Below, one piece after another: positions 10,348 to 11,400 of a stretch of 42,617 nt of DNA (positions are counted from its first letter, which is position 1; every line of letters begins with the position of its first letter). This DNA comes from a virus. The notes below the pieces were generated by a model. It had not been told where the DNA came from. It saw nothing but the letters and a program-made list of their open reading frames with translations, and did no database searches. The translations under genes were made by a program, and so were the position numbers. The DNA lies in IMG/VR virus record IMGVR_UViG_3300035400_000018, one strand, 5' to 3'.

Positions 10348-11400
10348 ATGAAAGCACGACCGATTTTGTTCAAGCCCGACATGGTGCGCGCCATCCTGGA
10401 TGGTCGGAAGACGCAGACGCGGCGGATTGTTAAGCCGCTGGCCGGCGCTGGGTGGCGGCCTGAAACCGCACACGGCGACGCGCTACGCCTGGGAAAGATC
10501 ACCAGCCCGCACCCGAAGAAGGGCAGATTCGGCCTCTTCATGCGCCGCGAAATCCACCCCGGCAGCGGCAAGTACGAGCACGACCTGGTGCCGTGCCCCT
10601 ACGGCGCCCCCGGTGACGTGTTGGTCCCTGCGGTCGAGATTCCCTTGTTGGGGCGGGCCTATTGCGCTGACATCAGCGGCAACATCTGGTCCCGTGCAAA
10701 GGGTGAGTGGCGGCGACTCAAGGGCAGCCCGAACAGCCGTGGCTACCTAACCGTCACCCCAGCAGTTGACGGCAAGTACAAGACTAGAGCTGTTCATCGC
10801 CTTGTGTGCGAAGCCTTTTATGGGGCAGCGCCAACAGGTATGTCGCAAGTACGCCACCTCGATGGCGACCGGCTCAGCAATCCTCCGCACAACCTGGACT
10901 GGGGAACTCAGGAACAAAACTGGCTTGATCGTGCAGCGCATGGCGGCGGCATGGGGGAGGCCCATCACGCCAGCAAGCTCACTGCGGGTGCGGCAGCGGA
11001 GATTCGCGCATCCTCAGCTTCTCAGCGGGCCCTGGCTGCTCGGTACGGCGTCTCGCAGAGTCAGATCTACTCGGTCAAATCCGGCAAGACGTGGGCGGAG
11101 GATCGGCGGCCGGCACCCTCGAACCTAGAGCGATGGACCAACCATCTCACCCTGGAAATCACCGACGTGCGCGTGGAGCGGTTGCAGGACATCAGCGAGG
11201 ACGATGCCGAGTGCGAAGGCGTCACCCCCGCCACGCCGCCGGAGCAAACCGGCGCCCGCCACAAGCCTGCTTTCCGCCACCTCTGGGAAGACATCAACGG
11301 CGAAGAATCCTGGGCCGCGAACCCCTGGGTCTGGGTCGTGGAGTTTCAGCCCCACCACACGAACGTCGATGCGTTCCTGCGGGGCAGGGAGGTGGCCTGA
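10348..11400 (+). CDS. Chimeric ORF (350 aa): ASCH-like early-protein ends with a complete HNH homing endonuclease in the middle
   Basis: N-terminus [26 protein letters not shown]...PYGAPGDVL and C-terminus [24 protein letters not shown]...NPWVWVVEF. The central part has [28 protein letters not shown] and [24 protein letters not shown]. Confidence 0.75.
   Translation: [350 protein letters not shown]
10624..11121 (+). mobile_element. In-frame HNH (HNH_3-type) homing-endonuclease insertion within ORF 10348..11400
   Basis: About 166 codons with an HNH core and a following HTH-like segment ([19 protein letters not shown]). They replace the central part of the host protein. No separating stop or start. 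Boundaries are approximate. Confidence 0.55.

Follow-up and report, generated by a model that had tools for sequence, protein, structure and literature searches.

The window analysed here, 42,617 nucleotides (nt) of viral DNA (IMG/VR record IMGVR_UViG_3300035400_000018), is judged from its sequence to be a temperate tailed phage, with genes for a lambda-type integrase, an S24 repressor, a terminase, a portal, a capsid protein and a tape-measure protein. In its early rightward operon lies a composite gene in which an HNH endonuclease is lodged, in phase, within a protein of predicted ASCH fold. The central 528 nt of this gene are probably a mobile, non-splicing homing endonuclease cassette seated in a hypervariable hairpin of the ASCH-fold early protein. 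The cassette is a genuine mobile element of an unusual kind; the arrangement also occurs outside the window, and annotation had previously overlooked it. The parts of the gene are as follows (aa, amino acid residues).

10348..11400, + strand: whole composite gene, an early gene of predicted ASCH fold with a nested HNH endonuclease.
10348..10617, + strand: N-terminal host segment, codons 1-90, with the GRK21TQT24RR26 ASCH/YqfB-type motif and the CPYGAPGD block; 97.3% DNA identity with the insert-free gene of relative L001.
~10618..11145, + strand: foreign tract, codons 91-266, 528 nt, made up of the I-HmuI-type cassette and short donor-type, host-homologous ends; delimited by comparison with insert-free relatives.
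10642..10785, + strand: predicted N-terminal beta-strand DNA-binding region of the endonuclease, aa ~99-146, with strands E102-108, E113-115 and E134-136 in the model; lies inside the I-HmuI alignment.
10786..10920, + strand: HNH_3 catalytic core of the beta-beta-alpha-metal type, aa 147-191 (Pfam HNH_3), with R169-H170, N182 and N191; D194 follows shortly after.
11017..11094, + strand: endonuclease helix-turn-helix, aa ~224-249, with weak Pfam HTH_3 and HTH_28 matches, helices H226-233 and H237-244, and an I-HmuI-like layout.
11146..11397, + strand: C-terminal host segment, codons 267-350, to NPWVWVVEF; 91-92% DNA identity with insert-free L002 and L003; contains E290, which corresponds to YqfB Glu74.

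The composite gene is a single open frame of 350 codons plus a stop, as an earlier note on this DNA had stated and as the open reading frame (ORF) and its translation confirm. That note had further proposed that the two ends belong to one family and that a full HNH_3-type endonuclease with a helix-turn-helix is embedded in phase between them. When the segments were searched separately, residues 1-92 and 259-350 both matched phrog_874, the former at profile positions 65-128 (E 1.3e-16) and the latter at positions 179-264 (E 2.7e-34), and so the N- and C-terminal pieces hit successive parts of one profile. The middle segment, residues 93-258, matched phrog_59 (E 4.6e-33), with Pfam HNH_3 recognised at residues 147-191 (E 6.6e-10; 38.9 bits against a cut-off of 24.8) and a weak HTH_3 match at residues 225-249. 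An AlphaFold2 model of the composite protein, built on 94 homologues, reached a predicted local distance difference test score (pLDDT) of 93.9 and a predicted template modelling score (pTM) of 0.88. The best match of this model in the PDB, as found by Foldseek, was I-HmuI (1u3e; E 8.7e-7, probability 1.00), aligned over 166 columns of the 174-residue chain, and the next matches, which fall on the flanks, were ASCH folds (YqfB 9kyf, probability 0.99; 3s9x; 2z0t). Pfam, phrog_59 and Foldseek agree on the embedded endonuclease, and in the model the middle is a complete enzyme of the I-HmuI type, comprising a beta-strand DNA-binding region, an HNH_3 core and a C-terminal helix-turn-helix. Residues R169-H170, N182, N191 and D194 are invariant in 71 interrupted homologues.

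Insert-free homologues of the host gene are abundant. They are 210-250 residues long and read CPYGxPGDxL-WVRE(T/A)W, then 20-45 hypervariable residues, then W(R/K), which is the continuation after PGD that the earlier note had given. A model of one such protein, P0036, has a pLDDT of 87.3 and is of low confidence only in two hypervariable regions; its host secondary-structure elements come in the same order as those of the window protein. The top 12 PDB matches of the P0036 model are all ASCH folds, and the model covers YqfB from end to end (template modelling score 0.72, normalised to YqfB; probability 0.99). Because the order of elements is the same and the top matches are ASCH folds, the N- and C-terminal pieces are modelled as one ASCH domain, with the HNH enzyme sitting in its first hypervariable hairpin. 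What has been replaced in the window, in agreement with the earlier proposal of a substituted centre, is this hairpin together with the adjoining WVRE and another adjoining conserved block.

The ASCH assignment is based on fold comparison and short local alignments, since comparisons of sequence profiles were weak or null. The Pfam ASCH model did not exceed its gathering score for the window protein (12.8 bits against a cut-off of 21.2; E 0.21), insert-free P0036 and P0072 gave no Pfam match, and the profile of the empty-allele family matched no PDB sequence even at E 10. Moreover, an hhalign comparison of the family with YqfB aligned residues 2-26 only, with a probability of 19%, which is a marginal similarity. 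YqfB is an Escherichia coli ASCH-domain N4-acetylcytidine amidohydrolase with a Thr-Lys-Glu triad and an Arg oxyanion hole (PMC6972931; PDB 1te7, 9kyf). The phage host domain shares its fold, and local alignments match K21, T24 and R26 one to one to YqfB residues at identical positions (z 3.3) and set E290 against Glu74 (gapless over 26 residues, z 4.5); the N-terminal GxKxx(E/T)xR motif is present as G19-R-K21-T-Q-T24-R-R26, for which the alignment evidence is weak to moderate. The phage family differs from YqfB in being twice as long, with three variable insertions, marginal sequence similarity and no known activity.

All four mapped residues, K21, T24, R26 and E290, are present in the window protein and are 99-100% conserved in interrupted genes, and the VERL and NPWVW blocks are equally conserved in occupied and empty genes. 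In contrast, two features that never vary among empty alleles, the R-E of WVRE and the PSIH motif, are lost in the window's class of insertion. The fold of the ASCH part is kept in the model, and the loss of R-E and PSIH means that its function may be reduced. The earlier supposition that the host protein is probably inactivated is not supported by the conserved residues and the modelled fold.

The limits of the insertion emerge from DNA comparison with insert-free relatives. The left flank is 97.3% identical to the insert-free L001 gene from 10211 up to the end of codon D90 at 10617, and L003 is 96.8% identical to the window from 9853 to 10438. Similarity is gone after 10617 and returns at 11131 in L003 (92.4%) or at 11146 in L002 (91.4%) and L001 (75.7%), and nothing in these three relatives resembles the intervening DNA. 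The cassette is thus present or absent between near-identical flanks, and because similarity to the insert-free genes stops and restarts at these points, the foreign tract is placed at ~10618-11145 (176 codons). The limits first suggested for the cassette, 10624-11121, were close, although the DNA comparison gives a slightly wider tract. Its GC content at third codon positions is 0.67, against 0.82 and 0.85 in the flanks.

At its left end the tract reads VLVPAVE (VLVPAVEIP...) in place of LLWVRE. At its right end the junction NLERWTNH is of donor type: it resembles NTERWTRP (PPNTERWTRP) of P0003, the gene with the module closest to the window's, and is unlike the host-type HMPRWASR. Ends of this kind would be expected after gene conversion from an occupied allele, the crossovers lying in CPYGxPGD and in a conserved right-hand block. 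The N-terminal flank of the window gene is 84-98% identical to empty alleles and ~40% identical to occupied ones, the C-terminal flank resembles another set of empty alleles at 90% identity, and the module, at 60-70% identity, is matched only by modules nested in the ASCH-like family. By these comparisons the window gene is a three-way mosaic. A megablast search of 10000-11800 against the phage collection gave no match, so no close sequenced phage is available.

The signals that might express the composite gene, or remove its centre, were sought in the surrounding DNA. Two expression signals were found.

10338..10341, + strand: GGAG Shine-Dalgarno-like motif, 7 nt upstream of the ATG at 10348; the sole ribosome-binding signal of the composite gene.
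9552..9580, + strand: PR-like sigma-70 promoter match upstream of the cro-like gene, a consensus match only; the sole + strand site in 9500-11600.

The composite gene is probably transcribed from the PR-like site, as no promoter-like site was found on the + strand inside the gene itself. Near the junction there is no in-frame internal start with a Shine-Dalgarno sequence. The only candidate string, GGTGAC, was rejected because it encodes the invariant G89-D90 and the TTG that follows it is weak, in keeping with the earlier observation that no stop, start or ribosome-binding site separates the parts. Pfam and Foldseek detected no Hint or intein family or fold in the composite protein, and an Rfam scan of 9500-17000 returned nothing at E up to 1. 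Moreover, the junction residues, L92/V93 (or D90/V91) and H266/L267, offer no Cys, Ser or Thr at splice positions and no terminal His-Asn. Because no intron, Hint domain, internal start or promoter was found, the endonuclease must be part of the 350-residue protein. Of the two outcomes that the earlier note had left open, a fusion protein is therefore the most likely, and an unrecognised processing step finds no counterpart in the sequence. A GC-rich inverted repeat at 10290-10325 (AAAGCCCCGG...CCGGGGCTTT), between the cII-like stop and the ribosome-binding site of the composite gene, lacks a T run and so was not called by the terminator scan; a possible role is to modulate read-through into the composite gene.

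The reading frame of the module is the frame under selection. In the tract shared by loci L086 and L088, the ratio of nonsynonymous to synonymous substitution rates (dN/dS) is 0.13 in the host frame (dS 0.355), and the other frames of the same tract give 1.6-2.1 and contain 7-15 stops. This indicates that the host-frame reading is the selected one and that the module is under purifying selection.

The same in-phase architecture is common to ~85 of the 120 best database hits (clusters), all with open frames and with overall identities of only 35-54%. According to the earlier note, homologues with an equivalent central domain would speak for a standing architecture rather than an insertion. Such homologues do exist, in the ~85 clusters; comparison of modules with flanks nevertheless shows a mobile cassette and not an old, vertically inherited architecture. 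Among 56 interrupted genes, the identity of the module is nearly uncorrelated with that of the flanks (Spearman 0.17), and pairs of genes combine module and flank identities of 100% and 65% (P0021/P0024), 100% and 61%, 96% and 53%, and 95% and 56%. The flanks of P0024 are 83% and 73% identical to an empty Brenneria allele, against 65% and 64% to P0021, the bearer of the identical module. At the DNA level, a sharply bounded stretch of ~540 nt is ~100% identical between L086 and L087; identity falls to 40-55% in the adjoining variable parts of the gene, and the rest of the 7-kb loci is unrelated. Between L086 and L088, similarity is essentially limited to 629 gapless nt (90%) and ~60 nt at the conserved 3' end of the gene. 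The cassette moves between unrelated prophages.

The insertion is sporadic as well as mobile. An HNH-sized insert was present in none of the top 150 of 54,725 family representatives, and the in-frame form in none of the 80 best genome loci; within the family, HNH domains have entered in phase at no fewer than three positions (at least three). A first, biased sample had put the interrupted genes slightly closer together, and segment-wise comparison ruled out a simple HNH-bearing clade. The comparisons thus show both parts of the homing signature, a sporadic distribution and lateral transfer that does not follow the host gene. A protein search with the module only gave six proteins of similar length, the nested modules not being re-listed. 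Free-standing relatives of the module, among them P0121 and P0123 with the same domain layout, do not exceed 46% identity to it, and because they are so distant the nested modules appear to be a lineage specialised on the ASCH-like gene.

Further cases of HNH and ASCH-like genes in combination occur in other genomes. In Mixta mediterraneensis (L027; NZ_JACFXY010000002.1, 2821-4088) a 193-residue ORF opens with a duplicated 5' end of the ASCH-like gene (MHERPIIFNADMVR), continues into a different HNH and helix-turn-helix and shares 10 nt with the start of an ASCH-like gene that is itself intact and uninterrupted; the arrangement is an endonuclease insertion of the free-standing type with duplication of the target 5' end. 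In a metagenome-assembled genome (L006; CAWJKT010000021.1, 2992-4230) a 412-residue ASCH-like ORF has ~190 extra residues in its N-terminal variable region, and an ORF for HNH_3 and a helix-turn-helix (3164-3697) lies in another frame inside the extra segment. This locus could be an out-of-frame case like the ShiLan elements compared below, a decaying copy or an assembly frameshift. Aeromonas phage ST4 (L090, 3001-4107; OR261032.1, 30983-32089) carries an in-phase ASCH/HNH gene, ST4_051, with 48.5% identity over 95% coverage. ST4 is the only isolated phage in the collection with this architecture; ST4_051 is annotated as a hypothetical protein and lies near an integrase and a tRNA-Lys in a 90-kb genome, and ST4 would be a culturable experimental system.

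A mechanism for the spread of the cassette can be proposed from these observations. Translation from the host ATG would make the cassette product a domain nested within the ASCH domain, and the ASCH domain would still fold around it. An occupied genome would meet an empty-allele genome when a phage superinfects a cell with a prophage or when two phages co-infect. The putative nuclease would then nick or cut the empty allele at or near the conserved sequence coding for PGDxL/WVRE, and recombinational repair would copy the cassette and a short donor flank into the empty allele, with crossovers in CPYGxPGD and the conserved right-hand block. The occupied allele, having neither the WVRE nor the PSIH sequence, would be immune to cutting. 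A candidate target, GGnnnnCCnGGnGAynnnCTn/TGGGTnCGnGAGAC, is conserved in 66 empty alleles, and the empty-allele sequence across the candidate site (in L001 or L003) is ...CCCGGCGACCTTCTG/TGGTGCCGTGAAACG....

Several points weigh against homing as the cause of this pattern. Cleavage and homing are inferences, and the proposed target site is conjectural. The flanking parts of the gene are themselves mosaic, the identities of the N- and C-terminal flanks being nearly unrelated among the 56 genes (Spearman 0.11), and because of this ordinary recombination at conserved blocks could move the middle without a nuclease. No near-identical donor of the window module was found, the best being 70% identical in protein and 68% in DNA, so either the invasion of the window gene was not recent or its donor is unsampled. 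Enzymes of the I-HmuI type are nickases that also cut their own intron-containing allele, and immunity through loss of the target site is consequently not guaranteed. In addition, the module clade is apparently confined to one gene family, which could reflect functional coupling, and long-term purifying selection with an invariant catalytic motif fits a domesticated, host-useful nuclease as well as it fits a selfish one.

The main alternative is accordingly a domesticated enzyme of two domains. ASCH domains are PUA-like modules that bind nucleic acids or modified bases or act as deacylases, and a standing ASCH and HNH enzyme might be useful to its bearer in phage competition, exclusion or DNA processing, its middle being shuffled by ordinary mosaic recombination. 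Open frames in all ~85 clusters of this architecture would be expected of such an enzyme, as would the invariant HNH motif, the near-complete retention of K21, T24, R26 and E290 (99-100%) in interrupted genes and the dN/dS of 0.13. A pTM of 0.88 implies a defined packing of the domains, the module clade is found only in the ASCH-like gene family, the flanks recombine freely, and fusions of PUA-family domains with HNH are known as modification-dependent restriction enzymes (PMC7897488). However, the architecture is a rare minority in a huge family, near-identical empty alleles exist, and identical modules with sharp edges occur in unrelated prophages. Entry of HNH domains at several positions (at least three), with free-standing and out-of-frame forms besides, is typical of selfish endonucleases; the insert removes the R-E of WVRE and PSIH, which empty alleles never lack, and the HNH is of the I-HmuI homing type, unlike that of the known PUA-HNH restriction enzymes. 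A two-domain enzyme of this kind is thus unlikely, with a chance that is still appreciable.

Much less probable is a neutral or decaying relic, in which neither the ASCH protein nor the nuclease works and stops have simply not yet been acquired. The window junction residues do depart from the family consensus (LE for MP at 260-261, and TNH for ASR), no close donor of the window module is known, and degraded copies occur elsewhere (P0088, L006). Against this, 350 codons have stayed open in GC-rich DNA with nothing lost from the HNH motif or from the mapped ASCH key residues, relatives show purifying selection on the module and the structure is predicted very confidently.

An intein or intron that is removed to restore a normal ASCH protein would likewise be in phase, stop-free, sporadic and next to highly conserved residues. 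Its probability is very small: besides the missing Hint fold, splice-site residues and Rfam intron described above, the whole tract aligns to I-HmuI, which leaves no room for a splicing domain, and all 528 nt are coding and under purifying selection. Hardly any weight, finally, attaches to an assembly chimera, which a three-way mosaic gene on a metagenome contig might bring to mind, since the same in-phase architecture and junction type recur in ~85 independent clusters that include isolate genomes and Aeromonas phage ST4, the junctions fall exactly on codon boundaries inside conserved blocks, and the P0001 cluster holds four member sequences from two sources (JGI and ENA), though from one contig.

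The family that hosts the cassette is very large, with 54,725 representatives at 50% clustering and E up to 0.001, of which 27,418 lie at E up to 1e-30, and with at least 549 loci in species-representative genomes of many phyla. No Pfam model captures this YqfB-like ASCH family, and phrog_874 is labelled 'unknown function'. In the relatives examined, the gene keeps one place in the early operons of temperate phages, in the order repressor, cro-like, cII-like, ASCH-like gene and replication genes. In the window the composite gene stands between a cII-like regulator gene (9841-10284) and a replication initiator gene (11400-12299), and this synteny is kept in L001-L003 and L089. The conserved K21, T24, R26 and E290 suggest that an activity of the amidohydrolase type is encoded beside the phage replication genes. 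Conserved blocks of the gene are separated by hypervariable regions, which in the window protein are residues 30-82, 93-258 and 292-308, and in some empty alleles, such as that of P0036 (GGCLNCGEPEPCACAEP), the second variable region contains Cys-rich inserts. The ASCH-like gene is a recombination hotspot of phage early operons even without an HNH, as the Spearman value of 0.11 between N- and C-terminal flanks (56 genes) illustrates.

Other HNH and nuclease genes lie downstream in the window. The ORF at 14872-16392 encodes a C5 DNA methylase with motifs IV and X in one frame. The methylase of L089, a contig from a closely related phage, has 349 residues; it is near-identical at both ends and lacks ~158 codons between ...KLRPVEP and FPL..., and the corresponding insertion in the window (~15829-16300) is stop-free in the methylase frame. 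The earlier note had seen here, at 15830-16327, a second HNH gene in phase with its host. Instead, the HNH ORF (15890-16288) has its own ATG and stop in a frame other than that of the methylase; it belongs to the zinc-type HNH family PF01844 (25.7 bits against a cut-off of 21.4). As judged from its frames, the methylase insertion is an arrangement of the ShiLan type in a temperate phage of proteobacterial type. The 'hidden HNH' of ShiLan elements has so far been known from actinobacteriophages (PMC11855218). Peptides in the HNH frame, LPTAWDECA before and LPPEWDDCA after, suggest a target duplication at the methylase insertion.

A free-standing HNH_3 gene at 13242-14054, whose start is probably later (~13425), matches phrog_1891 (E 1.2e-60) and is conserved in L001 (4020-4649). 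The window therefore holds both kinds of non-splicing HNH insertion and, ending at 14054, a free-standing HNH_3 gene. A tblastn search with the module found no paralogue within the window, and the three HNH genes are mutually unrelated in sequence. Directly after the methylase comes a gene resembling DUF968/RecA-dependent nucleases (16392-16763), in the same order as in L089 (14685-15056), and four nuclease-related genes lie within 6 kb of the early region.

The usual view is that homing endonuclease genes survive in essential or conserved genes only within self-splicing introns or inteins, or between genes. The balance tips slightly towards the ASCH-gene cassettes being a third way besides introns and inteins, namely a nuclease domain nested in phase, without expression or splicing signals and still actively homing. 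On that reading they would be the in-frame counterpart of ShiLan elements, and they may represent a pre-intein or pre-domestication state that gives rise to nested nuclease domains. The ShiLan elements showed in 2025 that non-splicing, stop-free insertions persist in phage genes, and how their out-of-frame HNH is translated is unsolved; the ASCH case has no such translation problem because the nuclease is part of the host protein. It offers a tractable system for studying how host proteins tolerate insertions, how co-conversion shapes the boundaries of phage mosaics, how nested nuclease domains originate and how selfish nucleases act in competition between co-infecting phages. For annotation, labels such as 'HNH endonuclease' or 'hypothetical protein' on genes of this kind mask both the host gene and the mobile element. 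The case also brings into view a very large group of ASCH-like genes in prophage early operons whose products have catalytic residues of the YqfB type.

Full-text literature searches found no description of the nested in-phase arrangement or of ASCH/HNH as a mobile element, and known systems resemble it in part. The PUA-HNH enzymes, such as the EVE-HNH modification-dependent restriction endonuclease VcaM4I (PMC7897488), also join a PUA-like, ASCH-related domain and an HNH nuclease in one polypeptide. They differ in being tandem fusions that serve bacterial defence with another HNH subtype, whereas the ASCH case is nested, of homing type, mobile and located in a phage early operon.

The mobE and seg genes of T4 and the yeast WHO elements, which replace the end of FBA1, are free-standing homing genes that split or abut their targets. 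Like the cassette they have no self-splicing element and spread with co-conversion of target-gene sequence, and L027 shows exactly this mode. Unlike the cassette, which forms a single polypeptide with its host, each is an ORF with a start and stop of its own, placed between genes or dividing the host gene into two polypeptides. Free-standing homing endonuclease genes at phage recombination boundaries are well described (PMC10448857).

HNH domains in frame with a host protein are known inside inteins, which carry splicing domains (bioRxiv 10.1101/2025.01.02.630785). There too the endonuclease is in phase with its host and beside conserved residues, and gene conversion brings co-conversion of flanks. 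However, inteins have a Hint domain that removes the insert; the cassette lacks one and must therefore be tolerated permanently, and it occupies a hypervariable surface hairpin rather than an active-site motif.

I-HmuI is the HNH homing endonuclease of the group I intron in the SPO1 DNA polymerase gene (PDB 1u3e). The cassette matches its fold over essentially the whole enzyme and contains the HNH_3 motif. I-HmuI is a separate protein encoded in a self-splicing intron, whereas the cassette is a domain of its host protein with no intron; sequence identity is only 23%, and Arg rather than Asp precedes the catalytic His. HNH_3 homing enzymes are otherwise free-standing or encoded in introns or inteins, and the cassette is none of these, having no start or stop of its own, no intron and no Hint domain.

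The nearest published parallel is the ShiLan element of actinobacteriophage DNA methylases, an actively homing insertion that neither splices nor contains stops; its HNH lies concealed in a different reading frame, beginning at a GTG and ending at a stop of its own, and the translation of this HNH is unexplained (Arsenault, Gosselin and Gogarten, 2025; PMC11855218). Both are stop-free inserts in a phage gene, without intron or intein features, that are sporadically distributed, have an HNH as mobile agent and are predicted to persist as an additional loop or domain of the host protein. The hosts differ, being methylases in the one case and an ASCH-fold protein of proteobacterial phages in the other. 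The in-frame translation of ShiLan is a featureless loop; what is new in the ASCH gene is that the in-phase translation is the endonuclease itself, folded as a nested domain.

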